DNA of 64,000 nucleotides from a virus. Taxonomy: Duplodnaviria > Caudoviricetes. Position numbers and translations under genes: made by a program. This document shows, piece after piece, positions 29,022-63,240 of the stretch (its first letter is position 1; each line of letters starts with the position of its first letter). The DNA lies in the IMG/VR virus record IMGVR_UViG_3300003937_000325. The stretch is one strand, 5' to 3'. A model generated the notes under the pieces. That model ran no database searches, was not told the DNA's origin, and worked only from the letters and a program-made list of their open reading frames with translations.

Positions 29022-32000
29022 TTAATTAAATGTTACTTTTCCGTTGTATGATTCTGCAGTACCTTTATTTAATCCAGAATACAGTTCGTTAAAGTACCCA
29101 TCTCTAACTGAATTTATGTTCTCTTTAGGTACGTTTATATAATAAAATATTCTTTCTTTTTCTTTAGTAAATGGTGAATAGTCGTTAAACTTCCTAACTG
29201 AACTACGTTTACTAAATCTGTCTAACTCTCTTTCAGTTTTTCTTTGTACTTTTTCATAGTTCCTTTGTAAGTCATCAACAAGATTATTAACGTATCTATC
29301 CCATTTATTGATGTTACCTAACCTATCATTCAATAGTTTTAATATAACCGTGTCTTTATCGTTTAATATTTTTTGATACATAGCATTCATAAAACGAGAG
29401 TAATATTGACCCTCATCTTGGTATTCAATCGAAAATGAGTAATCAGGTTTAAATGGTTTTTCGACTAATTTTTTATTATCGTCAAATATTTGGTCATAAA
29501 ACTCCTTTAAGTCAGTACTTAAAGTCACCATATCATTTTCCATTTCTTCGTATGTGTTATTTGCGTTTTTAGAAGTTTTATCAACACTATCGGTTGCCTC
29601 TAATTCTTGTTGTACATTTCTAGCCTTATCCGCAAACCCATCTGTATTAGTCATTACAAAACTTATTTTATCTATGGTTTCGATTAGACTTAATTGGTTA
29701 TTCACAACTTTTGGCATAACACTCATATAATCTGATATGTAATTTGGTTTAACTTCATTAATCAAAGTGATTATATTAAACTTATATAAATCTATATCGG
29801 CATTTGTAAAATTCTTATTATGTATCTTTTTAAGTAATGGTGAATTATCATTATTCACGTCATCAATTATTTCATCAAAAAGATTATTTATTTTATTTTG
29901 TAACTCGTCCTCTTTTGGTTTACCAAATAGTTTGGTATCTGTAGTTGTACCTGTAAATCCATCAGTATAATAACCTAACGTTTTACCGTCAGTATAATTT
30001 CTTTCGTCCGTAAAGTAAGCTAAACCATCTATTGAGTAAGTATTTGCTACTTGAGTCAGTGATTCGGTAATTGAGTTTGCATAATTTTTAACGTCCTCAA
30101 CCGCAGTTGCCATTATTGTTTTAAAAGAGGTTTGACCACTAGTCGTAGTCGCGGTAGTTGTAGGATAAGTGGTTAATTCGTCACTTTTAATAGTACCAAT
30201 TGTAACACCTTTATTTGGTATGTTATCATTAGTTGGTATATTATCTTTACCATCAAAGACTACATTACTTTCTATAGATTCCCATATCTCTTGATTTAAC
30301 TCGTCCCTTTGTTCTGTAACTACAGACCTTTCATCATAAACCTCTGTATTGGCATAATAATTAAATGAAAGTGCGTTTTGTAATCTATTTACGGGTTCTT
30401 TCAATCCTTGACCACCTATAAAGAAAAATGACATATTAATATCCGCTAACATTGGTTGAACACCTATTCCCTCAGGATTTAAATCAAAAGTTAATGGTTC
30501 ATAACTGATAGATATTTGATTAATGGCAATTTTAGTATGATAGAAATCACCAATTCTTAATATACATATTGGTGGCGCCCCAAATGATGTATTCTTCGCA
30601 TTAAACTCAGTTGGTCTACCATCATCACCTATTACGGGTATAGTATCACCAGGTCTAATACATTGTTGTAAAAAAGTAAGTCTTGAATTTAAACCTTCAG
30701 GTGTTATAGAGTGAAATGCTGGTTGGAAGTACTTTATTTTTTCCTTTATACCACTATAAACCATCGGCGAACTTTCCTTTACTAAATTAAAGTAATCACA
30801 CTCAGTCAATAATTTTCTAACTATTATCTTCGCTACCTCTTGTTTTTGTTTTGCGGTTGTTGTTGGGTCTTTATATTTAATTGGTTCCTCAGTAACAGTT
30901 TCCGTTACAGTATCTTTTGTGGGTACCGTCTTTTCTTCATCAGTTACCGGAACCTCTTCTTGAGATGGTGTTTCAACAACACTGTTAAAAAATACTCTTC
31001 TACAACCCATCGCCTGTGGTGAATATACCTTATCTGCTTCAGGTAATTCTTGTGTACAATCGACACCACCAATAGTCACCTGCTCTCCTGACGCAACCTC
31101 TTTAATTATAAATTTACCATCATCTTTCCACTGTTGTAACGTTTTTTGACTATTTGAAGGTTTTAATGGTAATAAATATTGTATAACACTATCGATTCTT
31201 CTTTTTGATAATGATTTATTATAGTTAACATCATTAGGTGACGATGCCGAACCTTGTAATAAGACTTCAACTGTAGAGCCGGCGTTTAACGCCTCTCCAA
31301 CTCCTTCAATAAATAATAAAGTACTATGTAACGGTCCCTTTTCAGGTCCTGTTAAAATATTTTTTTCATAGAACTCCTTAACCCCCACTTTATTTTCTGT
31401 ACTCGCGTATGTATTATAATCAGTCTGTTTAGCAATATAATTAGTTAATGTTGTTTGGTAAGACTCATCAGAGGTGGTTGATGTAGCGTTTGTTGGCCCA
31501 GGAACATCATTATCAAAATAATAAGCAAAACTGTAAGTATCCTCCTTTATTTTATCAACATACTCAACAACTGCGGGGTCCTCATCTCCAGGTACGCCAG
31601 GATTTATAAAATCAAAATGTTCCTTAACGTCTTCAGGTACGGGTGAGTTAACAATTATCTCGTAGATATCATTATAAGTAAATTGAGGATATCTTAAGGC
31701 TAATTCATATATGTCGTATTTTCTACAACCAGCAAAAAATGAATCCACAATACCTGTAACTTTATTGTTATTACTCTGATTCGCCAATTCTTTATCTACT
31801 ATAGCATTTAGTATTGATGGGTGGTCAACCACAATCTTCCAACTTAAATTACCATTTCTTGTTGTATTATTATATGTGTAAATTGGTTCAGGTCGACCTA
31901 AGAACTCATTTGTATTCCAATTCGCTGAGTTTGTTTCACTTACTTTCATATCGTAAGGTGGAAACCACATTATCCTACCACCATTAGGTCCTCTCTCACA

Positions 32001-33797
32001 ATGTGGTAGGTCTTGATAGGTGAACCCTTTTTTTCTTGACGTTCTCCACGCTAAGTTTTCTAAAGAAAACATGTATTTTTTAACTCCTTCACCTTTAGGA
32101 CTAAAATCATTACCTACTATGTTTGTACTTTCATTACCCCTCATTGGTGCAATGTTTAAATTGTATGTACTATCTAACACTGAGTAAGTAAACCGTCTAT
32201 TTGCCGTTGTAATACCCTCAGTTTTTTGTAAATCACCCATAGAGTAATATGGGGTATCTTTAGTAAATACACGACAATACTCCTGTCCAACAATATCACC
32301 ATCAACATCTTTATAGGCAATTACTCTTGAACCTTTTGTTAGTTCTCTCGTACCGTCATGAAACACTTTTGATACTTGGTCGATGGCATTACCAACATGT
32401 TGTAGTTTTCTAACACCTACTACCTCATCGGCAGCGTTAATTAATTTTTGTGTATTATCTAATATAGAACCTTTAGTGTATTGGTAGTTTCCGGAACCAT
32501 CTACTGATTGTGTGGCGGTAAAAGTATTTTGAACCCCTTGTTCATTCCAATCCGTATCAATAGTACCAAAAAACTCAGCACCTTTACCAACTTTTTGTCC
32601 TGCCCTATCTTTATATTTTGGTGAAACCCAAGTAAATCCTCCTTGTAATCCCCCATCATCATATGTTGAGGTTTGATTTAAACCAAATTTATATTGATTA
32701 TCTTTTTCTTCGTTTTCGTAAATTTTAGCAACCTCATCATAACCATATACGGGTGTTTGAGTTTTATTACCATCTCTATCTAACGGTAATGACTCCGCAG
32801 GGGCAACAACATCTCTCATTTCTTGTTGCGAACTACCTACGTAATAATTTTGTTTAGGTACCTTTGTAAATAAATCGGTTAAGAAGTTTTTATTATAATC
32901 AGGTATATAACGGTTTAATCTAAGTCCGTGAAAAAGTCTTGAACGTTGTCCACCACCTGTATTATCCAAGAATATTTGCATTCCTGTCTTTTCGGTGGGT
33001 AACTTTAAAACTCCTCTCTTATCAAATAAACCTGTTATTTTATTGGCTATTTGATTTAAATACATTTGTTTTGGTTCAGAACTAAAGTAATCACCAGGTA
33101 TCCACGAATATGGTGAATACACACCACTAACTCTACTAATGAAGTCTAAACCTTTACCAATTAAACTCTTAGGTACTGAAATTTTCCAATCTCTCTCAAT
33201 AATAGATTTATTACCTGTGACGATACCGAGTAAATCAAATGGGTCTGTTAACGCATCTATCGCGTTTACTCTACCTATAGTTTGTTGATATGTTTCTTCG
33301 GCTATTCGATATTGAAACTCAGTCTTAAGTGATTCCGCAGCAATTCTCGCTAAATCAGAATCTTGAGATAGTGAACCGTTATCCCCTTGAGGGTTTTGAC
33401 TTGTTAATAATATAAATGGATTGTATGAAGAAGCAATAAAAGTATTATATGGACTTTTACCGACTAATGCTGGTATCCCTTGTCCCATATCTAAATTTAA
33501 AGTATTACTAAAACTAGTTACAGAATTTATAAAGGTTATGTCATCAATAGATTTTGGCTCACCAAAACCTCCTTCAGGTCCATATTGGTTTTTAACATAA
33601 GCATAGTTCCCTTCATCAGAACCAATTACTTCCACCTCTTGAGAGTCAATAACACCAATATCATTTATAATAACTTCACTTTGTCCTGGTTGTGACGCAG
33701 GAGTAAAACCATCACTATTATATGGTTGTAGATTTTTTACTAATAATTTTTTTCTAAAATTTTCAGTAGAATCAAATGATAATGGACTTAATGACAT
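29022..33797 (-). CDS. Tail-tube initiator-like protein (gp48/gp54 or CIS-tube-like domains) with an embedded OmpA-like domain (1591 aa)
   Basis: MWFPPYDMKVSETNSANW...LGRPEPIYTY and CILRIGDFYHTKIAINQISISY...QPMLADINMSF are tube-like domains. LQGSASS...YNKSLSKRRIDSVIQYL...GE...CRRV is an OmpA C-terminal motif. Confidence 0.7.
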   Translation of the reverse strand: MSLSPLSFDSTENFRKKLLVKNLQPYNSDGFTPASQPGQSEVIINDIGVIDSQEVEVIGSDEGNYAYVKNQYGPEGGFGEPKSIDDITFINSVTSFSNTLNLDMGQGIPALVGKSPYNTFIASSYNPFILLTSQNPQGDNGSLSQDSDLARIAAESLKTEFQYRIAEETYQQTIGRVNAIDALTDPFDLLGIVTGNKSIIERDWKISVPKSLIGKGLDFISRVSGVYSPYSWIPGDYFSSEPKQMYLNQIANKITGLFDKRGVLKLPTEKTGMQIFLDNTGGGQRSRLFHGLRLNRYIPDYNKNFLTDLFTKVPKQNYYVGSSQQEMRDVVAPAESLPLDRDGNKTQTPVYGYDEVAKIYENEEKDNQYKFGLNQTSTYDDGGLQGGFTWVSPKYKDRAGQKVGKGAEFFGTIDTDWNEQGVQNTFTATQSVDGSGNYQYTKGSILDNTQKLINAADEVVGVRKLQHVGNAIDQVSKVFHDGTRELTKGSRVIAYKDVDGDIVGQEYCRVFTKDTPYYSMGDLQKTEGITTANRRFTYSVLDSTYNLNIAPMRGNESTNIVGNDFSPKGEGVKKYMFSLENLAWRTSRKKGFTYQDLPHCERGPNGGRIMWFPPYDMKVSETNSANWNTNEFLGRPEPIYTYNNTTRNGNLSWKIVVDHPSILNAIVDKELANQSNNNKVTGIVDSFFAGCRKYDIYELALRYPQFTYNDIYEIIVNSPVPEDVKEHFDFINPGVPGDEDPAVVEYVDKIKEDTYSFAYYFDNDVPGPTNATSTTSDESYQTTLTNYIAKQTDYNTYASTENKVGVKEFYEKNILTGPEKGPLHSTLLFIEGVGEALNAGSTVEVLLQGSASSPNDVNYNKSLSKRRIDSVIQYLLPLKPSNSQKTLQQWKDDGKFIIKEVASGEQVTIGGVDCTQELPEADKVYSPQAMGCRRVFFNSVVETPSQEEVPVTDEEKTVPTKDTVTETVTEEPIKYKDPTTTAKQKQEVAKIIVRKLLTECDYFNLVKESSPMVYSGIKEKIKYFQPAFHSITPEGLNSRLTFLQQCIRPGDTIPVIGDDGRPTEFNAKNTSFGAPPICILRIGDFYHTKIAINQISISYEPLTFDLNPEGIGVQPMLADINMSFFFIGGQGLKEPVNRLQNALSFNYYANTEVYDERSVVTEQRDELNQEIWESIESNVVFDGKDNIPTNDNIPNKGVTIGTIKSDELTTYPTTTATTTSGQTSFKTIMATAVEDVKNYANSITESLTQVANTYSIDGLAYFTDERNYTDGKTLGYYTDGFTGTTTDTKLFGKPKEDELQNKINNLFDEIIDDVNNDNSPLLKKIHNKNFTNADIDLYKFNIITLINEVKPNYISDYMSVMPKVVNNQLSLIETIDKISFVMTNTDGFADKARNVQQELEATDSVDKTSKNANNTYEEMENDMVTLSTDLKEFYDQIFDDNKKLVEKPFKPDYSFSIEYQDEGQYYSRFMNAMYQKILNDKDTVILKLLNDRLGNINKWDRYVNNLVDDLQRNYEKVQRKTERELDRFSKRSSVRKFNDYSPFTKEKERIFYYINVPKENINSVRDGYFNELYSGLNKGTAESYNGKVTFN

Positions 33798-38561: not shown

Positions 38562-41500
38562 TTAAATATCTTCAAAAGATGCTCCTGTAGGAGTAATCAA
38601 GAATTCAATATCTATAAATTCAAGTGCTCTTGTTGGTTTCAAGTAAATTTTACCTGTTAACGTATTAGAGTCTAAATCTTCAGGTGTATTTGAAACTGTA
38701 ACTCTAAAGTCAATCAAACCTCTGTCTCTTCTAATACTATCTAAGATAGGATTAACTGAGTCTAAGAACTCTTGTCTAACTTGTTCATCGTTTTGTTCGA
38801 ATAATAATCTTACCGCTACTGCCGAAATTAACTTACGTGCTTGTAGTAATAATCTTCTAACATTTATTCTATCAAGTGCAGATTCTTTAATCTGTAAAGT
38901 TTTGTTACCCCAAATAACTGTACCAACATCAGAGAAGGTTGCTATCGGGTTTAATCTACCTTGATAAAGTGTATCTCTATCTTCTTGTGTTAGTTTTTTA
39001 CGTGCTTTAACAGAATTAACTAAACCTCTCGTGTAACCCGCTGATGCGAACCATGGGAAAGCGATGTTGTCTGTTAATGCTAAGTTTCTAACAACTTCAC
39101 CTGTTGGTGGAAGATAAATCTGTGTATTATTAACCGTATCTCTTGTAAGAATCCATGGGTAATAAGTTGCAGTGTAGTTAGAGTCAATTCCTGTATCCTC
39201 TAAATTATCTACCGCCTCTTCAGGATAAATGAAGTCCGTATCGAAATTCCCTAAAGAAGGTGTAAACATATTATAATCAGGTGTTGTACAAATATAAACT
39301 GAATCCGCTCTGTCCTGTTCAATCATGTCAATTGCTGACTCAACTAAATTTGAGTTGTTAACATAATCAATACCAGGTGTAGTAAACACGTTAATGTTAA
39401 CTGATTCAGGATTATTGAATGTGTACTGACCCCATAAGTAAGCGTAATAATCAGTGTTAGCCCAAGTTAATTTATCTGGACCTACAATTTGTTTAAATGC
39501 TCCCCACCCTGTTGCGGTTGGATAAGTTATTGATGGTGCAGCACCTGCTCTAAATCCAGCAGCTCCTAATTGGTACCTGTCACCATTAGTTCTATATTGC
39601 CTGTAAATGTCCCATCCGTCAAAACCTCCTGATGGTACAACAGTGAACTTACGTGCATTTAATCTATAATATGGGTTACTTTCACTTTGAGGTTCCCCGT
39701 CAAAACTAGCGTCACCAACTTCAAAAGCGGTTTCACCTGAAGTAACATAGTTAGATGAAATTAAAATAACCGTTGCTCCTGAATCCATATGGTAACCTTT
39801 AGTTAGGTAAGACCATGGTTGTGAATCAGTAGCGGTCGCTAAATTAGTAGGATTTTGTTTTCCTTTATATGATAAGAAATCCGCATCTATACCTGCGGTG
39901 TTAGAAACACCTAAGTATGTTCTTCTTACTCTATCACCTGAACTTCTTGTTTCATTGTCTGTACCTGAAGCCGCACCAAATGGTGGGTTCCAAATAACTT
40001 CACCCGGTGTGTCATATTTTGTTTTATATTCTAAGAATGGTGATTTAACCCCTGAATACTGTCTAGTTTGATATCCTCTAAACCCACAAGGTAGTGAATC
40101 CATAGGTGCATCTTCATTCATTTCTAACATTATAAATCTTGACCTTAATTCAAATTCACCATTAGATGTACCAATTTTCTTAGCTACAAAACTATTTTGG
40201 TTGATATCCATCGTACAGTTAGTGAATTTCTCTAAAACTACAGGATTTGCGTCTGTATCGAAGAAATCACGTACTACAACATCAAAGGTTCCATTATTAA
40301 ATGAGATATTCATAATTGAAACTTTTACCTCTCTGTTTGCAGCATTACCGTCAGATATTGTTATAACTTTAAACATATCATAAACTTGGTTACCTCTCAG
40401 TTCTGAAACAAAATATGGAGTTTCAGGTGTTTGATATTGTTCTAAATACCAACCAATACTTGTGTTAGTTCCTAAATCTTGTCTCGCACTTGGTAAATCA
40501 GTTAGTGTACAATTTAAACCACGAACACGACCTAATCTATAACCAGTATTTAATAAGTTATAATATTCTTCTTCTACGAATAAAGGTACTTCAGATTTTG
40601 GTTTTGCAAAATTCGATTTTCCGAATACCTTTGATAGGTAATTGGAATTAGATACGTTAAATGATGTTTGGAAAAAGAAATTATCTCCATTTGCAGTTGT
40701 TGCTGAAAGACCAAATGTAGAGAAAGGGTTAGTATTAACCTCCGAGTAAACACCCGTACAATCCATGTTAACATCAGTTAATCCTGATACTTCATATACA
40801 GGACCATCATCAGAAGTATATGTATCGATACCTCGTGAACGTAAAGTTGCTACTACCACATCATGATAATCATTATACGGTGTACCTGTATAATTAGTTA
40901 CGTAAACTTGAGCGGTCCCTTGATATTCGAGACCAACCGTATTTACTAACGTGGTTACACCAAAGCCGAAACCTGTACCATTATAAACACCATTAGATTC
41001 TGTAAATAATGCGTAATACCATGGGTCGTTTACTGAGTCAGTTAATTCTATTGATTCAAACTGTATATTTTCAACACCTAAAACATTTACGTTACTTACG
41101 TAATTAGGTGTAGTAGTTACTCCTGTAATATTATCATATGTGGTCGAATCGACTGCTCCCCAAAAATAGGAGGTTTGTCCCGAATTTGCGTTGTTTACAA
41201 TTTCAGAATAGAAATAACCTTCCATATCTGATTGTAAAGTTGATTCACCGCCAGTATATGTTGTATATGAATCTGTTATCACACCTTGAATTGAAGCGGG
41301 TAGACCACCATAATTGGTGATAGCCACACTTGTAGATGTTCCTGAAACTCCGGAGAATGACACTGTAAATGGTCCAGTTTGTCCCGTAGCGGTCGTTCCT
41401 GAACTATCTAAGTTACCGATAGTTGTTATTGACCATGAAGGTCCTGCGTCATACCCTGATAATCCAAGTACCCTTGTTACAAACAATTGATTTGATTGTT

Positions 41501-41756
41501 GTAGATAAGACTTAGCTATATAAGCCGCCTCATACTTAGGTATCTGAGTATTTACAAATTTAGTTGGATTTGTACCACCAAAATAGGATTGGAACTCATC
41601 GTAATTAGTAATGAAAATCGGCTCGAATGCTGGTCCCGAAATTGTTTCACCTACTAACCCAAGAGTTGTTACTCCTACACTTTGTGCTACAAAACTTAAA
41701 TCTCTTTCTGATGTATAAACACCCGGAGATACGAATACTTTGTTAGATGTCGCCAT
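38562..41756 (-). CDS. Contractile tail sheath protein (1064 aa)
   Basis: VSPGVYTSERDLS at the N-terminus. YYPW, LPP, PWFASAG..RG, LNPI, WGNKTLQ, RINVRRL and PTRALEFIDIEF at the C-terminus. Confidence 0.97.
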   Translation of the reverse strand: MATSNKVFVSPGVYTSERDLSFVAQSVGVTTLGLVGETISGPAFEPIFITNYDEFQSYFGGTNPTKFVNTQIPKYEAAYIAKSYLQQSNQLFVTRVLGLSGYDAGPSWSITTIGNLDSSGTTATGQTGPFTVSFSGVSGTSTSVAITNYGGLPASIQGVITDSYTTYTGGESTLQSDMEGYFYSEIVNNANSGQTSYFWGAVDSTTYDNITGVTTTPNYVSNVNVLGVENIQFESIELTDSVNDPWYYALFTESNGVYNGTGFGFGVTTLVNTVGLEYQGTAQVYVTNYTGTPYNDYHDVVVATLRSRGIDTYTSDDGPVYEVSGLTDVNMDCTGVYSEVNTNPFSTFGLSATTANGDNFFFQTSFNVSNSNYLSKVFGKSNFAKPKSEVPLFVEEEYYNLLNTGYRLGRVRGLNCTLTDLPSARQDLGTNTSIGWYLEQYQTPETPYFVSELRGNQVYDMFKVITISDGNAANREVKVSIMNISFNNGTFDVVVRDFFDTDANPVVLEKFTNCTMDINQNSFVAKKIGTSNGEFELRSRFIMLEMNEDAPMDSLPCGFRGYQTRQYSGVKSPFLEYKTKYDTPGEVIWNPPFGAASGTDNETRSSGDRVRRTYLGVSNTAGIDADFLSYKGKQNPTNLATATDSQPWSYLTKGYHMDSGATVILISSNYVTSGETAFEVGDASFDGEPQSESNPYYRLNARKFTVVPSGGFDGWDIYRQYRTNGDRYQLGAAGFRAGAAPSITYPTATGWGAFKQIVGPDKLTWANTDYYAYLWGQYTFNNPESVNINVFTTPGIDYVNNSNLVESAIDMIEQDRADSVYICTTPDYNMFTPSLGNFDTDFIYPEEAVDNLEDTGIDSNYTATYYPWILTRDTVNNTQIYLPPTGEVVRNLALTDNIAFPWFASAGYTRGLVNSVKARKKLTQEDRDTLYQGRLNPIATFSDVGTVIWGNKTLQIKESALDRINVRRLLLQARKLISAVAVRLLFEQNDEQVRQEFLDSVNPILDSIRRDRGLIDFRVTVSNTPEDLDSNTLTGKIYLKPTRALEFIDIEFLITPTGASFEDI

Positions 41757-42040: not shown

Positions 42041-43081
42041 TTATAGAAGTCTAGCTTTAGATTTTAATACTGACTGTTTGGTTATATCTATTTTAACTAC
42101 ATCAATCTTAATCTCATCATTAGTTGATACCTTTATTGTTGCGATATCATCACCAATATAGTTATCATTAATATAAACGGAATAACTATCTACATTAGAC
42201 GTTTCTAATATTGTTAAATCAATTTCATATCTGTAAGTTTCAGTTAAAGATTCTAAACCACTAACAAAAATAATGTCTAAATCAAAATCACTTGGATTCG
42301 AAGGTAATTTCTCAACTCTCTTACCAGTATTAAGTAAATCAACCTCAAATATAGTTGCGGTTCTAGATATTGCAGGAGACACCTCAAACTCTTCTTCATC
42401 TAATAAGAATCCCATCATTAAGAATTCGTAGTTTTGTACGTAGTATTTTCTTTTCTCAAGTTCTAAAACGGATTCGTCAGATGAACTGTTTAATATCATT
42501 GGTATATAGTGACCCTTTATTTCTGTATACGCTTGTCTAGATGAAAATTTCTGTAATACCTTTTTATTAAAGTCATTTAACTCTCTCATTCTATTACAGA
42601 ATATTTTTACATTGTAAGTAATATCTACAGGAACGGGTTGAGGTATTTTATATATGTCCATTCCTTTTCTTTGTCCGTCCCACGTTGGTACTTTAGCGTA
42701 ATAGAATTGTCTTCTATTTGGTATTGTATATTGTAATGATGGATTTGTCCCAAACTTAACATCGGGGTTTCTAACCGTGGCAACAAAAGGGGGTTTAATA
42801 TTTTTATCTAAATCCTGAAAATTCCAAGTCTCAGTAAACTGAGCCCAATTTTGTGTGGTTATAATTAAATCTATATTTTTTATATTCTTCCCGTTTACTG
42901 AAATACCTAATTCGTCTCTAACAAAATCTAACATACCCCTATCTAAATCTGCATGTAAAATGGATTTTGGTAAATAGGTACCATCTTCTTGAATTTGTTC
43001 AAGTAGTTCCTCTCTTCTCTGATGTAAAATTTTATCAGGAGTTAAAGGTAAATATTTTTTTACATTTTTAGGTAGTCCCAT
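42041..43081 (-). CDS. Tail terminator / sheath-stabiliser-like protein (T4 gp15-like)
   Basis: DLDRGMLDFV, IPQPVPVDITYNVKIF...ELND. Located between the neck and sheath genes. Confidence 0.7.
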   Translation of the reverse strand: MGLPKNVKKYLPLTPDKILHQRREELLEQIQEDGTYLPKSILHADLDRGMLDFVRDELGISVNGKNIKNIDLIITTQNWAQFTETWNFQDLDKNIKPPFVATVRNPDVKFGTNPSLQYTIPNRRQFYYAKVPTWDGQRKGMDIYKIPQPVPVDITYNVKIFCNRMRELNDFNKKVLQKFSSRQAYTEIKGHYIPMILNSSSDESVLELEKRKYYVQNYEFLMMGFLLDEEEFEVSPAISRTATIFEVDLLNTGKRVEKLPSNPSDFDLDIIFVSGLESLTETYRYEIDLTILETSNVDSYSVYINDNYIGDDIATIKVSTNDEIKIDVVKIDITKQSVLKSKARLL

Positions 43082-43641
43082 TATTTTACAGTTTCACTTA
43101 TAAAAAATACTTTATTCTTAGAGTTAATCATTTCAACCTCGTTAGCATTGTAAATTGGTTCCTCACCATCTTTTCTAACGAATGAGTCATACTTATACGG
43201 ATTATACGTTATCACATTCTCATTTGGCTCATCAGGTAAGTTTTCACACGGAAACGTACAAAAATCCATTAAAGTTCCAATCACAAAGGCATGTACATTT
43301 TTTCTCATTTCATCTCTTACTTTTTCTTTACCTCCTTGTCGTACTCTAAATTCAACATCTTTTAATTTAACATAATCGGCATACATTACAATTTTATTTT
43401 TATATGATACTGAAAATGTGTGTTTATGTAAGTTATAGTATACCATAACTTTTTTACCTATATAATTAACTTCTTGATTATCGTTACCACATTTATGACA
43501 GATATACGGGTCGTGGCCACCGTCACTTAAATCCCAAGACCACCCACAATCATCACACACAACTTTTTCACCTTCAATACCTTCACACATATGTGACATA
43601 CGGGTTTTAATAAAATTTATTTCTTTTAGTAATTTTTTCAT
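43081..43641 (-). CDS. Hypothetical protein with a CxxC...CxxC zinc ribbon (186 aa)
   Basis: CDDCG...CHKCG followed by a YYNLHK...KNVHAFVIG...TYNPYKYDSF domain. Confidence 0.8.
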   Translation of the reverse strand: MKKLLKEINFIKTRMSHMCEGIEGEKVVCDDCGWSWDLSDGGHDPYICHKCGNDNQEVNYIGKKVMVYYNLHKHTFSVSYKNKIVMYADYVKLKDVEFRVRQGGKEKVRDEMRKNVHAFVIGTLMDFCTFPCENLPDEPNENVITYNPYKYDSFVRKDGEEPIYNANEVEMINSKNKVFFISETVK

Positions 43642-44199: not shown

Positions 44200-45963
44200 A
44201 TGGAAAGTAATAAAGATAAATTATCTAAGATACCTGAAGTTAGGGCGCAACGTACATTAGAAGTATACGATGGGTTCAATAATTATATACAATCTATTCA
44301 AAAAAAATTTAAAGAACAAAAACATTTTAAATTAACAAGGGCTCAAGCCGACTACATCAATAGTTATCATGAGTTAGTCCCTAAAATAGCCAGAAAGTGG
44401 GTGGACTTAGATAGTTACTTCGGTAAGAAGATGATGGAAGATAAACTTCTTACAAAAGTACCTGAAAAAGTTTACATTGAAAAACTTTTGGTCGAAAAAG
44501 ATAAATCTTTTCACATATGGGGTAAAATATTTGAAAATGAAAAATTACATTCATTTTGGTTACCTCGTGTTGCACTAATAAAATCACAGGAAATTGAAAA
44601 GGTTCAAATAGATTATACTAAATACTCTCATAGACCTCCGTTAGAACATCAAATAGAATCTATTGAAAAATTAGCGAGTCATAAGAAATATATCTTAGCT
44701 GATGATATGGGGTTAGGTAAGACTACCTCAACCGTCATTGCTGCTTTAGAGTCGGGAGCCGAAAGAGTATTAATTGTTTGTCCAGCATCTTTAAAAATTA
44801 ATTGGAAACGTGAAATTCAAAATTATACCGAAAAAAGCATATCAATAGTCGAAGGTAAGAAATGGGAAAGTGCCGATTTTGTTATTATTAACTATGACAT
44901 ATTAAAGAATTTTCATGATATAAAAAACAAAGAAGAATCAATAATATTGCAAGAAGGGTTTGATTTAGTTGTTGTCGATGAGGCACATTACATTCAAAAT
45001 GTTCAAGCAAAAAGAACTAAATTAATTAACGACATAATAAATTCAATAGGTAAGGTATGGTTACTAACGGGTACTCCAATGACATCAAGACCAATTAATT
45101 ATTATAATTTATTAAATTTAGTAGAATCACCTGTGGCTTATAATTGGATGGCGTACGTAATTAGGTACTGCGAAGGTTATCAATTTAATGTGGGTAATCG
45201 TAAAGTGTGGAACGTAAATGGGGCGTCTAACTTATTAGAGTTAAGAGATAGAACCAAAACGCATGTTCTTAGAAGATTAAAACAGGATATTTTAGATTTA
45301 CCTGATAAGATTATCACTCCCGTTTATTTAAATTTAAAATCTAAAGAGTATATGGCACTTATGGGTGAATACTACGATTGGATGGAGGATGATAGGGAGA
45401 AAAAATCATTAACCGTACAATTTTCTATGTTAATGAAAGTCAGACAAATAATTGCCGAAAATAAAATAAAAGAAACTTGTGAGTTAGTTGAAAACATTAT
45501 TGAACAAGGAAAGAAAGTAATTGTCTTTACCAACTTTACTGACACACTAAATAGAATTGCGGACCACTTTGGTAAAAAGGCAGTTAAATTAGACGGTAAG
45601 ATGAGTAAAGTTGCTCGTCAAAACTCTGTAGACCAATTTCAAGAAAATGATAAAATAAAAGTTTTTGTTGGTAACTTAAAAGCTGCAGGTGTTGGTATAA
45701 CTCTTACCGCAGCAGAGGCAGTAGTTATGAATGATTTATCATTTGTTCCTTCTGACCATTCACAAGCCGAAGACAGAGCGTATAGATACGGACAAAAATC
45801 TAATGTTTCTGTATTCTACCCAATTTTTGAAAACTCAATAGAAGGTATCATATATGATATTTTATCTAATAAGAAAAATATTTTTGAAACGGTTATGGGT
45901 GATAATGAGGAGAGAGGGGACATAATGGAACAAATTATTAATGAAATATCAGTTAGAAGATAA
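44200..45963 (+). CDS. SNF2/SWI2-family SF2 helicase
   Basis: LADDMGLGKT, VCPASL..NW, INYD, VVDEAH, LLTGTP..RP, LRRLK, GVGITLT and QAEDRAYRYGQ. Confidence 0.95.
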   Translation: MESNKDKLSKIPEVRAQRTLEVYDGFNNYIQSIQKKFKEQKHFKLTRAQADYINSYHELVPKIARKWVDLDSYFGKKMMEDKLLTKVPEKVYIEKLLVEKDKSFHIWGKIFENEKLHSFWLPRVALIKSQEIEKVQIDYTKYSHRPPLEHQIESIEKLASHKKYILADDMGLGKTTSTVIAALESGAERVLIVCPASLKINWKREIQNYTEKSISIVEGKKWESADFVIINYDILKNFHDIKNKEESIILQEGFDLVVVDEAHYIQNVQAKRTKLINDIINSIGKVWLLTGTPMTSRPINYYNLLNLVESPVAYNWMAYVIRYCEGYQFNVGNRKVWNVNGASNLLELRDRTKTHVLRRLKQDILDLPDKIITPVYLNLKSKEYMALMGEYYDWMEDDREKKSLTVQFSMLMKVRQIIAENKIKETCELVENIIEQGKKVIVFTNFTDTLNRIADHFGKKAVKLDGKMSKVARQNSVDQFQENDKIKVFVGNLKAAGVGITLTAAEAVVMNDLSFVPSDHSQAEDRAYRYGQKSNVSVFYPIFENSIEGIIYDILSNKKNIFETVMGDNEERGDIMEQIINEISVRR

Positions 45964-46001
45964 AAAATTATAATTAACCATTATTTATAATAAAAAAATA
46001 A

Positions 46002-47564
46002 ATGAAGTTCAAAAGATTAATAAATAAAATCTCAACGATTGAACATAAAATTAATAGCCGAGAAAAGTTAACAGAAGTTAACGTTAATATCTCGCACACT
46101 CCCAAACAAATTTTAACAGAAATGAAAAAAATTGGTATAGAAACATTACCGTACTCTTATTCTGCCTTAGAGAGATTTATAGATTCAGAAACTATGGATA
46201 CTCACTATAACAAACATTATAAAGGATACGTTAAGAAATTAAATAATGCATTGTCGAGTAGAGTTGACGGTAACATTGAATTAGAACAATTAATAAGAGG
46301 TATTTCACGATACAATAAAACAATTAGAGACAATGCGGGCGGAGCATTTAACCACGCACTTTTTTGGAAAATAATGTCACCCAAAAAACAAAGAGCTCAA
46401 GGTGAAATTTATGACAAAATAATTAAGGATTTTGGTAATTTTCCTAAATTCAAAAAAATATTTAGTAATGAGGCAATAAAAAACTTTGGTTCAGGATGGA
46501 CTTGGTTAGTCTTAACTAAGAATGGTAAATTAAAAATAATGTCCACCCCAAATCAAGACAACCCATTAATGAATGTGGTTAAAAATGGTGGATACCCATT
46601 ATTGTGTTTAGATACATGGGAACATGCTTATTACTTGAAATACCGTAATAAGAGAGATGAATATGTTAGAAATTTTTGGACAATAATCAATTGGGATTAT
46701 GTTAATGAATTATATTTAAATCAAACATCAAAAAAACTAACTGAAACGAAGATAGTTAAAAGTATTATTTCTGAAGGTGCGAGTGCAGGATGTAATAGAA
46801 ATCAAGTACAGACGTACCGCAGATTATTTAATACTAATCCTGAGATAAAAAAACGTTTTATGTATACGATAATGGATATACTAAAAGAAGTATTTTCAGA
46901 ATATTGGTATGAAAAAAACAAATACTCTAAAGGTCAAATGTCAGGGATTTATGATTATGAACAAAAAGGTCGCTCAGTGATTAATAAGTTAAATACCAAC
47001 TACACAGCTTTTTGTACATTAGTGAGTGACACAAATAAATATTTAAGAAAATATGGTATTGATGCAATTAATTTTAATGATAAAAATCACAAACAACAAC
47101 TAACTGAAGTTGATAGACTTAACAAATATTTGATAGAATTAAGGTACTCTATTTTTAACGCAGATTCACCAACGTTTAAAACTCTAATGTCTGGTTTAGA
47201 TAAAACAAATAAGTTTGGAGATAAAAGAGAGGTTGACGCTGTTGTAAGTTTAAAAAAAATATTTAACACTTCTGATGTCAAAAAAGTTGGGGAACTAGGT
47301 GACGTAGATGATATGATTAAAGGTATAGACGCAGTCGTCACATTACCTGAAGGTACTAAAACAATACAAATTAAACCATTTAATCGTATTAATAAAAAAG
47401 ACGGTAAAGTTATTGTTTACGGTACAGGAAACGTTAAACCCTATAAAACGGATTATTTAGTTTTTCATAGTGATAAGTTAGGAACTGAAGTTTTTGAGAA
47501 TAAAAATACTAAAATAGTTAACGGAAGATACGTTTTTAACGAGTCATCACAATATATTAATTAA
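46002..47564 (+). CDS. sodA: Fe/Mn superoxide dismutase (Mn-type signature) fused to a C-terminal PD-(D/E)XK-like domain
   Basis: LPYSYSALE, HYNKH, NAGGAFNH, FGSGW, PNQD and DTWEHAYY. Then about 270 extra aa containing E...GID...IQIK. Confidence 0.9.
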   Translation: MKFKRLINKISTIEHKINSREKLTEVNVNISHTPKQILTEMKKIGIETLPYSYSALERFIDSETMDTHYNKHYKGYVKKLNNALSSRVDGNIELEQLIRGISRYNKTIRDNAGGAFNHALFWKIMSPKKQRAQGEIYDKIIKDFGNFPKFKKIFSNEAIKNFGSGWTWLVLTKNGKLKIMSTPNQDNPLMNVVKNGGYPLLCLDTWEHAYYLKYRNKRDEYVRNFWTIINWDYVNELYLNQTSKKLTETKIVKSIISEGASAGCNRNQVQTYRRLFNTNPEIKKRFMYTIMDILKEVFSEYWYEKNKYSKGQMSGIYDYEQKGRSVINKLNTNYTAFCTLVSDTNKYLRKYGIDAINFNDKNHKQQLTEVDRLNKYLIELRYSIFNADSPTFKTLMSGLDKTNKFGDKREVDAVVSLKKIFNTSDVKKVGELGDVDDMIKGIDAVVTLPEGTKTIQIKPFNRINKKDGKVIVYGTGNVKPYKTDYLVFHSDKLGTEVFENKNTKIVNGRYVFNESSQYIN

Positions 47565-47605
47565 AGAAATGTAGTTTTCTGAATATTTATTAAGAAAACA
47601 CACAT

Positions 47606-48718
47606 ATGTCAGTAATAGTTGAACCACAAAGAACAAAACTTTATACCCGTGTAAAACACCTATTAGGTGCACCAATACGTAGTATTGAAATAGAAGATGA
47701 AATGATGGACTCTTTATTAGAGTTATCTATTCAGGATTACGCTCAATATGTGAATGATTGGTTAATAGAGTCTCAATGGACATCACTTTACGGTATGAAC
47801 TTAGATGAACAATCTGTCACAAGAGCATTCACTACTCGTTCATTAGACTGGGAAACTCAATACACCTATTCTTATTCTAAAATAGTTGGACTTCAAGCCG
47901 GTGGAGACTCAGTACTCAAAAAAGATTATATCGACTTAAAAACAAACCAACAAATTTATGAAATACCAGCAGGTAGAGAATTAAATGAATTATTATGGTT
48001 TTCAAGAGCAGAATTAGACGCAGCCTTTTTCGACCCATTTATGGGTGGATTTGGAGGTATGGGTGGTGTAGGTTTAGGTGGTGGTGCCGGATTTTCACAA
48101 ATGGGACAAACAGGTAATTACATGATAACACCCGCTTTTGACATTTTACTTAGAATGCAAGACATAAATTTAAAACGAAGACTTATTGGTGGTGAATTAA
48201 CGTATAGAGTAACTGCGTTACCTGAAGGAAAAAAAGCCGTACATCTTTATAATGTCCCTGGAGGTAAATTTGATTTTGGTACAATAGAAAATAACGAATA
48301 TAGAGTATGGTATTGGTATTACGAAACTAATGATAGGGAAGATTGTTTAGCTAAAAACCCTGATGTAGTGAGACTACCTTCTGATATTCCAATTGATGAA
48401 ATGTTATGGGCAGAACTAAATAATCCAGCACAAGCTTGGGTTAGAAAGTGGTTTGTTGCTTATGTTAAAGAAACTTTAGGACGTGTAAGAGGTAAATTTA
48501 GTGGTAATTTAAAAACTCCAGATTCTGAAGTAACAATGGATTACGATTCTTTACTCACTGAAGCTAAAGACGAAAAGAGTAAATTAATGGAAGAATTAAT
48601 GAATCGATTAGAAAGGTTAAGACCTGATAAGATGATGGAAAGAGAAGCTAATTTAGCTGAAAATTTAAATAAATCATTACAATACAGAGCGTTACCGAGA
48701 CAAATGTACGTAATTTAA
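47606..48718 (+). CDS. Neck / head-tail adaptor protein (T4 gp13-like)
   Basis: RVKHLLGAP...IEIEDE and WVRKW...KETLGRVRGKF. TATTTAT lies upstream. Confidence 0.75.
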   Translation: MSVIVEPQRTKLYTRVKHLLGAPIRSIEIEDEMMDSLLELSIQDYAQYVNDWLIESQWTSLYGMNLDEQSVTRAFTTRSLDWETQYTYSYSKIVGLQAGGDSVLKKDYIDLKTNQQIYEIPAGRELNELLWFSRAELDAAFFDPFMGGFGGMGGVGLGGGAGFSQMGQTGNYMITPAFDILLRMQDINLKRRLIGGELTYRVTALPEGKKAVHLYNVPGGKFDFGTIENNEYRVWYWYYETNDREDCLAKNPDVVRLPSDIPIDEMLWAELNNPAQAWVRKWFVAYVKETLGRVRGKFSGNLKTPDSEVTMDYDSLLTEAKDEKSKLMEELMNRLERLRPDKMMEREANLAENLNKSLQYRALPRQMYVI

Positions 48719-51961: not shown

Positions 51962-52417
51962 CTATTTTGTGTTTCTTTCTTGCCATTCGTAAGATACTGA
52001 ATCTTCATCTATCGGACCACCTTTAGCCCAAGTATAACAAGTTCTAGCTGAGTGACATTTGAAGTTGTGCATCCAACAGTAACCTAAACGACCATCATCA
52101 TCTGATGTAACTCCAGGCATACATTCATCCATTCGTTTTGATATGTCAAATGCAACACAATTACCACATAAAGATTTTTTAGCTGCCTCTTCAGTAGTAT
52201 CCCAATGTTTCGATAAGTCTTGCCAATAATCACCAGGTTCATCTACATTTAATGGTCCATATTTTATATGTTCTGACTTTATAGATGAGTCTCGATTTTT
52301 CGTATTTAATTCTAAATCTTGAGTGGCTTTTGGACAGTCCATTTCTGATTCGCCTAATAATCTACGATTTAATCTTTCGATTACTAAATTTTTTTGCCTC
52401 CTTATACTATTACTCAT
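51962..52417 (-). CDS. Cys/His-rich hypothetical protein (151 aa)
   Basis: CGNC...C...C..H.F.C....C pattern suggests metal binding. Confidence 0.8.
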   Translation of the reverse strand: MSNSIRRQKNLVIERLNRRLLGESEMDCPKATQDLELNTKNRDSSIKSEHIKYGPLNVDEPGDYWQDLSKHWDTTEEAAKKSLCGNCVAFDISKRMDECMPGVTSDDDGRLGYCWMHNFKCHSARTCYTWAKGGPIDEDSVSYEWQERNTK

Positions 52418-52448
52418 AGATTATAATAAGTTAATTTATTTTACCATT

Positions 52449-54224
52449 TTAGTCACATGGTATTATGCTTGTAACCATTCCATTAGTTACAATAAGTATA
52501 TCAGTACTACCATCAACAGCTATACGACCGTTATCGAACGGGAATTCACCATTAGGGTCTGTAAATATTGGGTTATTTTGTGCTGGAGTAGTATTAGTCT
52601 CGTCTTTAAATTTAGCGAAGTAATACGTTTCAGTTTTAACCGCCGCACATTGTGTTACTCCTGATGCACCTATAAATGAAGGTAACGCCGCAGGACATGA
52701 AATATCCATATCCCATACTGTATTACTATAAAATCCAATACTTTCTAGTCTTAGGTCAGATGCAAGAGTATTTGTTTTCGGTATCACCATAAGGTTCCAT
52801 GTTCTTGGGTCACCAGCATCAGTACCTGTGTTCGCCACATAATCCCCATTTTGGAATGTTGCGTTGGCAGTACCGTTTACTACCCAAGCTTCGTTAGCAT
52901 CTAAATAATATTGGGTTAATTCATATGATACTCCCGCAGTAATACTTGTAGGTGCCTCGGTTGGTGAACTTGTTCCAACATATGTGAAGTTTCCGGTACC
53001 TGGACTTGTTGACTTGACTGGGTTTGTTACTGCAAGATTTGGACTAAACAATGTATTGTAGGTTGCTAAGTTATGACGTACTCTAATACCATCTGGAATT
53101 GAACGAGGCCCGAAATAAATAACAACCGCACCTGTGTCAGTACCAACACTAAAGTCAACAAGATACTTACCTTGTGTACCTATAGGTATACTTGGGGCTC
53201 TATTACACGGTTGTAAAGGTATTGCTGGCTCAGTTGGTGTCGGAGTTGGTGTTGAAGTACTAGTTGGTGTCGGGCTGACATCTCCACCTCCACCTGTTGT
53301 TGGTGTTGGAGTCGGAGTCGTAGTATTAGTTGGTGTTGGAGTCACATTTTTATCATCTGTAGTTGGTGTCGGAGTTGGTGTTGAAGTACTAGTTGGTGTT
53401 GGGCTGACATCTCCACCCCCACCTGTAGTTGGTGTCGGAGTTGGTGTTGAAGTACTAGTTGGTGTTGGGCTGACATCTCCACCTCCACCTGTTGTCGGTG
53501 TTGGTGTTGGGGTTGAGGTATTAGTTGGTGTCGGGCTTGGAGCTATATCACATATACAATTTCCATTTGTATTTGCTGACCCACCACATGATGGACTATT
53601 GTTTATTACACTCAGAGCACAAATTGTTTTTGAATCGTATCGGTCGAGTATGATTTGTGTAGTTATACCCTCACAATCTACTACTGTAAATGTTGTACCA
53701 GATTCACATTCCATACCTCCATATAAGGACCACGTATTACAACATGGATTCGTTGGTGTTGGTGTCGGGGTTGATGTGTTAGTTGGGGTATTAGTTGGAG
53801 TAGACGTGGGAGGAAGACCTGTTGTTACTGTCGGTGTCGGTGTTACAGTATTAGTTGGCGTATTTGTCGGTGTTACAGTATTAGTTGGAGTATTTGTCGG
53901 TGTTACAGTATTAGTTGGCGTATTTGTTGGGGTAGACGTGGGAGGAAGTCCTGCCGTTACTGTTGGTGTTGGTGTTTGAGTTGGCGTACTAGTGGGTGTT
54001 GGGGTGACAAAAGATACTGTTGCAATAACATCACACGGAGAATCACTTGCACATATATATACGTTATGAGTATCAACATCAACAAATGAATACCCATCAA
54101 TTAATTGTTGTCTAGTTACCGTAGCAATTAGATTTCCAGCATCTATTGAGGTATGATAAATATTAATCACCGAGATATTTGTCCCGACCGTTAATCCTGT
54201 TAATGTTACTGTTCTATTCGCCAT
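52449..54224 (-). CDS. Pro/Thr-repeat (mucin-like) putative virion fibre or decoration protein (591 aa)
   Basis: Two PT-rich tracts separate small Cys-containing domains and a C-terminal beta domain. TATTTAT lies 8 nt upstream. Confidence 0.8.
   Translation of the reverse strand: MANRTVTLTGLTVGTNISVINIYHTSIDAGNLIATVTRQQLIDGYSFVDVDTHNVYICASDSPCDVIATVSFVTPTPTSTPTQTPTPTVTAGLPPTSTPTNTPTNTVTPTNTPTNTVTPTNTPTNTVTPTPTVTTGLPPTSTPTNTPTNTSTPTPTPTNPCCNTWSLYGGMECESGTTFTVVDCEGITTQIILDRYDSKTICALSVINNSPSCGGSANTNGNCICDIAPSPTPTNTSTPTPTPTTGGGGDVSPTPTSTSTPTPTPTTGGGGDVSPTPTSTSTPTPTPTTDDKNVTPTPTNTTTPTPTPTTGGGGDVSPTPTSTSTPTPTPTEPAIPLQPCNRAPSIPIGTQGKYLVDFSVGTDTGAVVIYFGPRSIPDGIRVRHNLATYNTLFSPNLAVTNPVKSTSPGTGNFTYVGTSSPTEAPTSITAGVSYELTQYYLDANEAWVVNGTANATFQNGDYVANTGTDAGDPRTWNLMVIPKTNTLASDLRLESIGFYSNTVWDMDISCPAALPSFIGASGVTQCAAVKTETYYFAKFKDETNTTPAQNNPIFTDPNGEFPFDNGRIAVDGSTDILIVTNGMVTSIIPCD
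53230..53535 (-). repeat. Coding tandem repeat, about 66-bp unit (SPTPTSTSTPTPTPTTGGGGDV), three near-identical copies plus one variant
   Basis: Visible in both the DNA (gttggtgttgaagtactagttggtgt...) and the protein. Confidence 0.9.
53750..54005 (-). repeat. Coding tandem repeat, 30-bp unit (TPTNTPTNTV), with a duplicated GLPPTSTPTNT
   Basis: gttacagtattagttgg occurs three times at 30-bp spacing. Confidence 0.9.
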
Positions 54225-61333: not shown

Positions 61334-62542
61334 ATGTCAAAGATAAGAGTATTAGTCCTACCATCCGATAGAACAGGTGTCGGTAAATTTCGTTCAGTTG
61401 AACCTCACATTTTTCTACAAAATCAAAATCCTGATGACTTTCATGTAGATATAGATTACGACCCAAAAATTAATGATGATAACTTTTGGAAAGGTTATGA
61501 TATGGTTCATTTTCATAGAACAATCACTAAAGATTATGATAGTACACCGGCCTTAATCGATAAATTACATAAATGGGGCATAGTAACAGTTGCCGATATT
61601 GATGATTATTGGTTACCAACTAAAGAACATCCCGCACATGCTATGATTCAAAATAATAAGTTGAATCTAAAAATTAGAGCAAACTTAAAAGCTGCTCAAT
61701 ATGTGACAACAACTACAGAGATTTTTGCTCAAGAAATAAAAAAGTTTAATAAAAATGTTTTTGTTTTACCAAACGCGATTAACCCTAATGAACCTCAGTT
61801 TAAACATAAGACAGAACCCTCAGATAAATTAAGATTTGGGTGGTTAGGTGGTTCTTCACATTTACACGATTTAAAAATATTAGATAATTGTTTTAGTAAA
61901 TTAGGTAACTTAAAAGAAAAATATGAGTTATATTTATGTGGTTTTGATACAAGAGGCTCAGTAACTGAAATTGACCAAAAAACAGGTAATCAAAAACAAA
62001 GAGATATTAAACCAGAAGAAACGGTATGGGCGGAGTATGAAAAAATATTCACAAAAAACTATCAGGATGTACCTGAAGAATATAAAAAATACCTTTTAAC
62101 GTATAATCAACAACCTTACAACGATGAAAAATATTATCATAGAGTTTGGACACAACCCGTCACTTCGTACGCTAAAAACTACGCAAAATTTGACGTATCT
62201 TTAGCTCCGATTAAAAATCATATCTTTAATAGAATGAAATCTCAATTAAAAGTAATTGAAGCGGGGTTTTATAAAAAGGCAATTATAGCCTCAAATATTG
62301 GACCTTATACCATCGATTTAAAACACGCACTTAAATATGGTGAATTTGTTGATGGTAATGCATTATTAGTAAATGAAGGTAGAAATCATTCAGATTGGGC
62401 AAAATATATTAAGAAATTGGTTAATAACCCAACATGGGCTGAAGATTTAGGTGAAAGGTTATATGAAACAGTAAAAGACACTTATGATTTAAATGTAGTA
62501 ACAAAAACGAGAGCAGAAATATATAAAACAATAACAAAATGA
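61334..62542 (+). CDS. GT-B glycosyltransferase (GT4-like)
   Basis: DIDDYW, YVTTTT, VLPNAI, FGWLGGSSH and DVSLAP...FNRMKSQLKVIEAG (EX7E-like region). Confidence 0.88.
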   Translation: MSKIRVLVLPSDRTGVGKFRSVEPHIFLQNQNPDDFHVDIDYDPKINDDNFWKGYDMVHFHRTITKDYDSTPALIDKLHKWGIVTVADIDDYWLPTKEHPAHAMIQNNKLNLKIRANLKAAQYVTTTTEIFAQEIKKFNKNVFVLPNAINPNEPQFKHKTEPSDKLRFGWLGGSSHLHDLKILDNCFSKLGNLKEKYELYLCGFDTRGSVTEIDQKTGNQKQRDIKPEETVWAEYEKIFTKNYQDVPEEYKKYLLTYNQQPYNDEKYYHRVWTQPVTSYAKNYAKFDVSLAPIKNHIFNRMKSQLKVIEAGFYKKAIIASNIGPYTIDLKHALKYGEFVDGNALLVNEGRNHSDWAKYIKKLVNNPTWAEDLGERLYETVKDTYDLNVVTKTRAEIYKTITK

Positions 62543-63240
62543 TAGATTTACCATTAAACAAACTTTTATTTTTCGATTTAGAAACTGTAGGTATTGAAAA
62601 AGACTTACCGACACTTAAGAAAAATAAACCAGAATTAGCAAGATTATTTGAGAGTTACTTAGATTGGTTTATTAGGAAATATCCTGACCAAGAAGGTAAA
62701 ACACCTGAAGAGATTTTTATTAATAAGGCCGCATTAGTTGCTGAGTTCTCTAAAATTATAGTAGCATCTTTTTCTTTTATAACTCCAAGTGATGAGGTAC
62801 ATACTCAAACATTTGCCGAAGATGACGAGAAAGAATTATTACTTAAGGTTAGAGACTTATTAAATAAAGTTCAAAAATTAGATTTTCACTTATGTGGACA
62901 TAATATTAAATTTTTTGATATACCAACCTTAGGTAAAAGATTTTTAACTAATAATATTTTACCACCAAAAATATTACCTTCATACGAAACTAAACCGTGG
63001 GAGGTAAAGGCTCTTGACACTAAAGATATTTGGCAGTTTGGTAACAATTTTGGGATATCATCGTTAGATTTAATGTGTGTGTCAATGGGTATTGAAAGTC
63101 CTAAAACGGGGGAAGTAAGTGGTAATTTAGTACACGACACATATTGGAACGCAAATGGATTATCGCCAATAGCGGAATACTGTGAAAAGGATGTAAATGT
63201 ACTTGTCGAATTAATTAGAAAAATTTACAATTTAAAATAA
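62539..63240 (+). CDS. Stand-alone DEDDy 3'-5' exonuclease (PolB-exo-like)
   Basis: FFDLETVG, GHNIKFFDIP and YCEKDV. Confidence 0.88.
   Translation: MIDLPLNKLLFFDLETVGIEKDLPTLKKNKPELARLFESYLDWFIRKYPDQEGKTPEEIFINKAALVAEFSKIIVASFSFITPSDEVHTQTFAEDDEKELLLKVRDLLNKVQKLDFHLCGHNIKFFDIPTLGKRFLTNNILPPKILPSYETKPWEVKALDTKDIWQFGNNFGISSLDLMCVSMGIESPKTGEVSGNLVHDTYWNANGLSPIAEYCEKDVNVLVELIRKIYNLK

Follow-up and report, generated by a model that had tools for sequence, protein, structure and literature searches.

The chlorovirus PBCV-1 and Megavirus reportedly package Cu/Zn superoxide dismutases (SODs) in their virions. Several cultured bacteriophages have Fe/Mn SODs as ordinary stand-alone genes, and a literature search for SOD fusions in phages, or for phage SODs carried in virions, returned nothing relevant. 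Packaging of enzymes into a phage head is described for T4, in which the prohead protease gp21 cleaves after L/I-x-E and a 10-residue N-terminal capsid-targeting sequence (CTS) suffices for IPIII or foreign enzymes, among them nucleases, to be carried into the head (PMC9026906). Here, we examined a gene at positions 46002..47564 (+) of a 64,000-nucleotide stretch, hereafter the window, of IMG/VR virus record IMGVR_UViG_3300003937_000325 (Caudoviricetes). What we regard as firm is a gene, real, widespread, modular, and probably expressed late, in which an intact Mn-type SOD is coupled to a new virus-only family with a modelled PD-(D/E)XK fold. The main new point is this modularity: at one locus, the same leader is found with the SOD, with the C-terminal module (C-module), or with both. 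Tentatively, and at something short of an even chance, we read the gene as a late accessory cargo gene of a ~300-kb marine T4-type myovirus, whose precursor would be cut by the prohead protease and whose products would be packaged.

The gene and the slot it occupies

The gene is one uninterrupted frame of 520 codons, and all its parts lie on the plus strand. A leader (aa 1-40; 46002..46121) consists of a helix at residues 2-24 and a flexible stretch running to I-L-T-E40, after which the next residue is M41. The Fe/Mn SOD module, of Mn type, follows (aa 41-243; 46122..46730), and then a 15-aa linker, KKLTETKIVKSIISE (aa 244-258; 46731..46775), which contains two [ILV]-x-E motifs, L246-T-E248 and I256-S-E258. 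The C-module comprises the 262 aa after the linker: a helical N-half of 144 aa (aa 259-402; 46776..47207), delimited by alignments and model, and a PD-(D/E)XK domain of ~118 aa (aa 403-520; 47208..47564 with the stop codon), delimited by Foldseek, VIA-align, and invariant residues. The leader up to ILTE40, the linker, and the series E410...D443...Q456-x-K458 are all present as a preliminary description of the sequence had reported. Searched against PHROGs, the whole protein, the C-part, and the leader gave zero matches.

The gene order around this locus is conserved: SNF2 helicase, a variable gene, gp13 neck gene, a small open reading frame (ORF), and then a DNA polymerase on the opposite strand. 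In the window, the left border of the slot is an SNF2-family helicase (44200..45963, +; Pfam SNF2-rel_dom and Helicase_C) and the right border a gp13-type neck protein (47606..48718, +), which matches the head-tail adaptor family PHROG 211 and whose orthologues carry PF26809 (Phage_T4_gp13); the gene does precede a neck gene, as first described. The slot contains leader-SOD-C in the window and in L069, leader-C (294 aa) in the 332-kb contig L087, and leader-SOD (230 or 262 aa) in L099 and L101, the SNF2 helicase neighbour being common to the last three. Leader-SOD also occupies the slot of G007, a complete 321-kb genome with direct terminal repeats; searched across that whole genome, the C-module has no copy, while the controls matched (G002, E 4e-112; G003, E 6e-129). 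Given the differing contents of the slot and a complete genome without the C-module, we therefore regard both domains as dispensable, exchangeable cargo. On the C-domain tree the presence of the SOD changes at least 8 times, and the deepest branches are without it. A profile built from the leaders of SOD-bearing proteins matches 21 SOD-less members at their N-termini, with E from 8e-7 to 3e-3 and ahead of nearly all decoys (best decoy, 2e-3); by this comparison the leaders of the two forms are probably homologous. Taken together, leader homology and the changes on the tree suggest that the SOD lies between the C-module and a leader that was there before it.

Further combinations were seen in metagenomic proteins. 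Three of them (P0328, P0341, and P0373) have a zincin-like HEWVH...EDEAN domain upstream of the same SOD, with linkers rich in [ILV]-x-E; this HExxH domain has no Pfam match. Four others (P0305, P0311, P0371, and P0374) are leader-SOD proteins with unrelated tails of 110-150 aa after a conserved K-K-x-[ILV]-x-E site, and a Pfam scan of the P0305 and P0374 tails found no match. Both the HExxH-SOD proteins and the SOD proteins with other tails keep the same junction motifs.

Could the fusion be an artefact of assembly or gene calling that joined two genes? The preliminary description had named an assembly chimera as one outcome that would undo its reading, and the fusion survives that check. A search with the C-part only returned 273 homologues, mostly SOD fusions of 510-521 aa, at 95% to 43% identity and from many sources, and 355 IMG/VR stretches encode a relative. 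The identical architecture recurs in hundreds of contigs from many samples, and in the window the reading frame runs on without interruption. Fourteen DNA runs, which come from 11 or more studies, contain all sampled words of the gene, and six metatranscriptomic libraries contain 42-75% of them. Independent DNA contigs of 17 kb and 12 kb span the gene with zero differences. Two RNA-library contigs, one of 767 nt (46078-46844) and one of 316 nt (46474-46789), leave parts of the gene uncovered and bridge the SOD-linker-C junction, again without differences; DNA carry-over may contribute to these RNA libraries. With 273 homologues, 355 stretches, and bridging contigs, the artefact reading is refuted, and the chance we still allow it is negligible.

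The SOD and nuclease-fold modules

Both Pfam domains of Fe/Mn SODs are present well above their cut-offs and together cover aa 47-236: Sod_Fe_N (PF00081) at aa 47-126 (E 3.6e-21; 75.9 bits vs. a cut-off of 27) and Sod_Fe_C (PF02777) at aa 133-236 (E 6e-39; 132.7 bits vs. 20.9). The closest solved structure is the MnSOD 6gsc (E 6e-57, ~45-50% identity over 191 aa). Conservation was assessed, here and below, in 88 non-identical fused homologues. The metal ligands H68, H118, D204, and H208 are invariant (88/88), as are H72, W206, and E207, while Y76 is kept in 87; at the site of the Fe-type Gln, the Mn-type marks G113 (88/88) and G114 (87/88) are found, and Q185 of the NQD motif is retained in 87/88. 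Such a pattern is what purifying selection on a working SOD, Mn-type or cambialistic, would be predicted to leave. The proposal of a complete Mn-type SOD with all four ligands is thereby borne out; the accompanying remark that Cu/Zn types are the more familiar phage SODs is not, Fe/Mn SODs being annotated in several cultured phages. Like the bacterial Mn-type enzymes (6gsc, 5a9g, and 1jr9), the phage module has both Pfam domains, all four metal ligands, the gateway His72 and Tyr76, and the Mn-type Gln of NQD. Unlike them, it is flanked by a leader and a second module, and the residue equivalent to His31 (E. coli numbering) is a Tyr (HYNKHY); its Mn preference is predicted. The virion Cu/Zn SODs of giant viruses are more distant comparators: they infect eukaryotic hosts, whereas here an Fe/Mn family member occurs in a bacterial-virus setting, and they have neither a propeptide and protease scheme nor a fusion partner. 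What the two would share is the proposed idea of a particle-borne SOD blunting host superoxide at entry.

The C-module was modelled with AlphaFold (mb227c79befa6; 27 homologues), with a pLDDT of 89 and a pTM of 0.82. Against the PDB, Foldseek placed I-Ssp6803I, NhoI, and Hjc resolvases on top (E from 2e-3, probability 0.8-1.0). The best VIA-align match was Hjc 2wcw (Z 7.8, rmsd 3.5, 103 aa aligned), followed by HhaI (Z 7.0), NhoI (6.9), and I-Ssp6803I (6.8), the further rows being nearly all PD-(D/E)XK enzymes; every match spans model residues 152-269, that is, aa 403-520 of the protein. Structure matches in BFVD and the ESM Atlas were phage Holliday-junction resolvases and PDDEXK_5 proteins. 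For the C-terminal ~118 aa, a PD-(D/E)XK fold is thus supported by modelling, in agreement with the restriction-endonuclease-like domain first proposed from the E/D/QxK pattern, whose residues stand at the canonical places. E410 (GDKRE), D437, D443 (GID), and Q456-I-K458 (IQIKP) are invariant. In the models, E410 lies in helix 390-420 (helix 1), D443 just before strand 444-448 (the start of strand 2), and K458 in strand 451-459, so that Q456-x-K458 falls in strand 3; the same E/D/K geometry has been described for the superfamily (PMC3424549).

The resemblance to small nucleases such as Hjc, I-Ssp6803I, HhaI, HinP1I, and MspI extends over the whole 118-aa domain (Z 6.4-7.8) and includes the placement of key residues, with Glu in helix 1, Asp where strand 2 begins, and x-K within strand 3. 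Spacing is also similar, the HhaI active site being SD-X11-EAK (PMC7026639) and that of the phage domain D-X12-QxK. Unlike these enzymes, the phage domain has the invariant Gln456 in place of the second acid, two residues before the Lys, and in the model the canonical second core helix is absent, with extra strands in its place; it is also preceded by the conserved 144-aa helical part and belongs to no Pfam family. D437 is an invariant candidate for the role of a relocated acid, a change known from active PD-XXK variants such as Cfr10I and EcoO109I (PMC3424549). Overall, the SOD and the nuclease-fold module both keep intact active-site residues, and both activities are predicted.

No block of the protein is better conserved than GRSVINKLNTNY, which lies in the helical N-half together with, according to the alignments, the invariant C264 and C338; for this half VIA-align gave no clear structural match, and an ESM Atlas feature search no usable one. 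After aa 240 the C-part matches no Pfam family, whether E is relaxed to <=1 or distant members are scanned, bar a single RE_EcoO109I match on family member P0178 (E 0.0045, below cut-off), and a PDB sequence-profile search with alignment A2 returned chance-level rows only. An exhaustive search expanded the family to 156 clusters at 50% identity, most of them stand-alone proteins of 250-295 aa, and all its ESM Atlas clusters are viral. Judged from the modelled fold, the C-module is probably a new, virus-only PD-(D/E)XK family without a Pfam model. The module was also observed at the end of ~1100-aa proteins, P0191 (1109 aa) and BFVD A0A8D9CCA0 (1113 aa); the first 838 residues of P0191 match no Pfam family. 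A 318-aa paralogue of the nuclease-fold core (L082:2360-3316; E...GMDIAV...HVQVKPF; profile A2, E 3e-9) is encoded directly downstream of the prohead protease gene in G002, a complete 322-kb relative, and begins MKITISE followed by G.

Leader, linker, and genome context

Five columns only keep [ILV]-x-E in at least 70% of the homologues. One belongs to the buried WEH motif of the SOD and two lie at helical positions of the C-module; the remaining two are the linker sites, E248 and E258. At each linker site the motif is present in about 98%; residue by residue, E248 is kept in 100%, E258 in 97%, and [ILV] at P3 in 98%, while neighbouring linker residues are conserved in only 17-50%. At the leader end, I37-L-T-E40, the column holds a Glu in 72%, a figure affected by alignment noise in a region of variable length. 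In the full-length model, pLDDT drops below 50 only at aa 20-42 and aa 244-258, where E40, E248, and E258 lie, and a leader helix is predicted at aa 2-24. With a full-length pTM of 0.52, the domains are therefore taken not to pack against each other; in this model the three parts are independent beads on flexible segments. Deep-branching stand-alone members begin with peptides of ~10 residues that end in [ILV]-x-E (MKKPFVINE, MKKLSMLITE), which are, as far as sequence can tell, T4-CTS-like in form. Close homologues P0010-P0012 (480 aa) are called from a Met equivalent to M41 (MENIGIEK...), without a leader. A gp21-type Peptidase_S77 (PF03420) is encoded in 5/5 long related records. The relative G003, syntenic with the window (orthologue L003, 88% identical), has a PF07230 portal, a PF03420 protease (62473-63195), and a PF07068 gp23.

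From these features the following course may be proposed. The leader would act like the T4 CTS and bring the precursor into the prohead, where the gp21-type protease would cut after E40 and after E248 and/or E258, all in the form L/I/V-x-E. Cleavage would free a ~24-kDa SOD and a ~30-kDa nuclease-fold protein inside the head, and both would enter the host together with the DNA; there, the injected SOD might quench superoxide early in infection, and the nuclease-fold protein bind or cut DNA. The idea that the head protease could split the protein was already part of the preliminary description; the conserved [ILV]-x-E sites in flexible segments and the gp21-type protease of the relatives speak for it, cleavage itself being inferred. 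The likeness to the T4 internal proteins IPI, IPII, IPIII, and Alt consists in a short N-terminal propeptide ending in L/I-x-E (PMC9026906), a T4-type prohead protease in relatives of the window, and a cargo that is a dispensable enzyme. Engineered T4 CTS fusions likewise carry foreign enzymes, including nucleases, into heads (PMC9026906). In contrast to the internal proteins, the phage leader measures 25-40 aa rather than 10 and does not resemble the T4 CTS in sequence, two cargo domains stand in series with internal sites, as in a polyprotein, and packaging and cleavage are here predicted.

Late expression is suggested by a promoter-like motif. TATTTAT, read directly at 45982..45988 (+), lies 20 nt 5' of the ATG; among homologous genes, each of the 33 distinct upstream regions (33/33) has it at -19 to -29, amid divergent flanks. 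In the window, sense-strand TATTTAT is found 12-44 nt 5' of 13/44 genes, mostly tail, baseplate, and neck genes, where ~1 such placement would be expected by chance (an estimate from the total motif count that takes no account of the AT-richer intergenic DNA). The neck gene has a copy of its own at 47584-47590, and others precede 38562-41756, 5240-10705, and 29022-33797; upstream of the SNF2 helicase gene a TATAAATA-like sequence is found instead. The motif noted at the outset in front of the gene is, then, kept in relatives and common to structural genes, and the pattern fits co-expression with virion genes, the promoter class being predicted. The window as a whole derives from a large AT-rich myovirus, with tail sheath, baseplate wedge, class I ribonucleotide reductase (RNR), DnaB-like helicase, and family-B DNA polymerase genes. 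Its nearest record, 45 kb long, is rated 14% complete, therefore the genome should be roughly 300 kb; related IMG/VR records reach 322 kb. Elsewhere in the window, G+C rises to 0.405 at 52001-54000 (vs. about 0.31 elsewhere), inside a 591-aa ORF (52449-54224, -) that has no PHROG match and whose opposite strand reads as Gly/Val repeats.

Competing explanations and significance

Several points weigh against a packaged, protease-cut precursor. All members of the family are uncultured. Genes for the protease, portal, and gp23 are absent from the 64-kb window. The motif [ILV]-x-E is short and common in a proteome rich in Lys, Glu, and Ile (by our estimate it occurs by chance in about half of 40-aa stretches of this composition), and its conservation could reflect linker structure. 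The E40/M41 junction may be no more than a remnant of where an inserted SOD gene originally started. Set against all ORF N-termini of G003, the leader profile gave borderline matches only, to an L5_gp82-domain protein (E 0.003) and a membrane protein (0.002); with no convincing match elsewhere in the phage, a shared address label is unsupported by sequence. In the window, the Phage_L5_gp82-domain protein (43081-43641, -) begins MKKLLKEINFIKTRMSHMCE followed by G; its G003 orthologue is the top match to the leader profile outside the family (E about 0.002-0.003) and may carry a related leader. As for the C-module, the fold scores are moderate (a Z of 7.8, in the range that the tool calls common, and a Foldseek E of 2e-3), and nuclease activity is uncertain because Gln replaces the second acid and the second core helix is missing.

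The main alternative is that the gene is an auxiliary metabolic one and its product an uncut, bifunctional enzyme, made late and active in the cytoplasm. The SOD would then lower superoxide in the infected cell and protect, for example, the radical-based RNR or phage DNA, and the nuclease-fold part would act on DNA of the host or of the phage; the leader would serve as an oligomerisation helix, and the linker motifs would have a structural role. The stand-alone Fe/Mn SOD genes of cultured phages, the class I RNR subunits encoded in the window, and the predicted helix at aa 2-24 of the leader all accord with this alternative. Yet two near-invariant [ILV]-x-E motifs within a variable, flexible linker are hard to explain structurally, the leader is the same whichever domain follows, and the gene adjoins a neck gene and has a promoter-like motif common to structural genes; a joint bifunctional role is also unlikely because the domains need not occur together. 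On balance, we consider a cytoplasmic enzyme unlikely, if still the strongest competitor of the packaged precursor.

Improbable, in our view, is a variant in which the packaged protein has a C-module that binds DNA rather than cutting it, as a T4 gp2/IPI-like end protector or anti-defence factor on a weakened PD-(D/E)XK scaffold, with the SOD as passenger. The invariant Gln456 at the canonical acid position would suit such a protein, as would a size of ~262 aa (T4 gp2 has 274), the separate and highly conserved surface block of the N-half, and dispensability in some relatives, as is the case for host-specific counter-defence proteins. The invariance of E410, D437, D443, and K458, on the other hand, fits metal-dependent catalysis, active PD-XXK enzymes with a relocated acid, such as Cfr10I and EcoO109I, do exist (PMC3424549), and the weak RE_EcoO109I match of P0178 points the same way; hhalign of A2 against the T4 gp2 sequence gave a probability of 0.06%, a comparison of low power with a single-sequence target. 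We disfavour even more strongly, as very improbable, an essential head-completion or neck nuclease equivalent to T4 gp4 into which the SOD was merely inserted. The gene adjoins the gp13 neck gene in all relatives and the fold is PD-(D/E)XK, and a T4 gp4 search of the complete relative G002 came back empty, which, without a positive control, shows nothing. G007, however, has only leader-SOD in the slot and no C-module in its genome, and therefore an essential morphogenetic role such as that of gp4 is unlikely; a nuclease "for packaging", as the preliminary description had it, is likewise unsupported, a complete relative with terminal repeats lacking the module. Against the gp4 sequence, hhalign of A2 reached a probability of 0.5%, again with the low power of a single-sequence target.

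The packaged, protease-cut precursor thus remains our preferred reading. A broader and somewhat more doubtful extension of it is that the slot beside the neck gene is a plug-in cargo bay, in which a propeptide and gp21-type sites would load interchangeable injected enzymes (MnSOD, the new PD-(D/E)XK family, the zincin-like domain, and others), the SOD being an effector against the host oxidative response or defence. The C-module stands for a putative PD-(D/E)XK family, virus-only and so far uncharacterised, that comprises about 156 clusters at 50% identity, and the swapped architectures at one locus offer a natural experiment on which cargo each host or habitat requires. If the precursor is indeed cut and packaged, an antioxidant enzyme and a protein that acts on DNA would be injected alongside the genome of these giant phages, which are abundant in the sea. 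Such a system would be a bacterial-virus counterpart to the virion SODs of giant eukaryotic viruses, and would do in nature what T4 CTS delivery was engineered to do.

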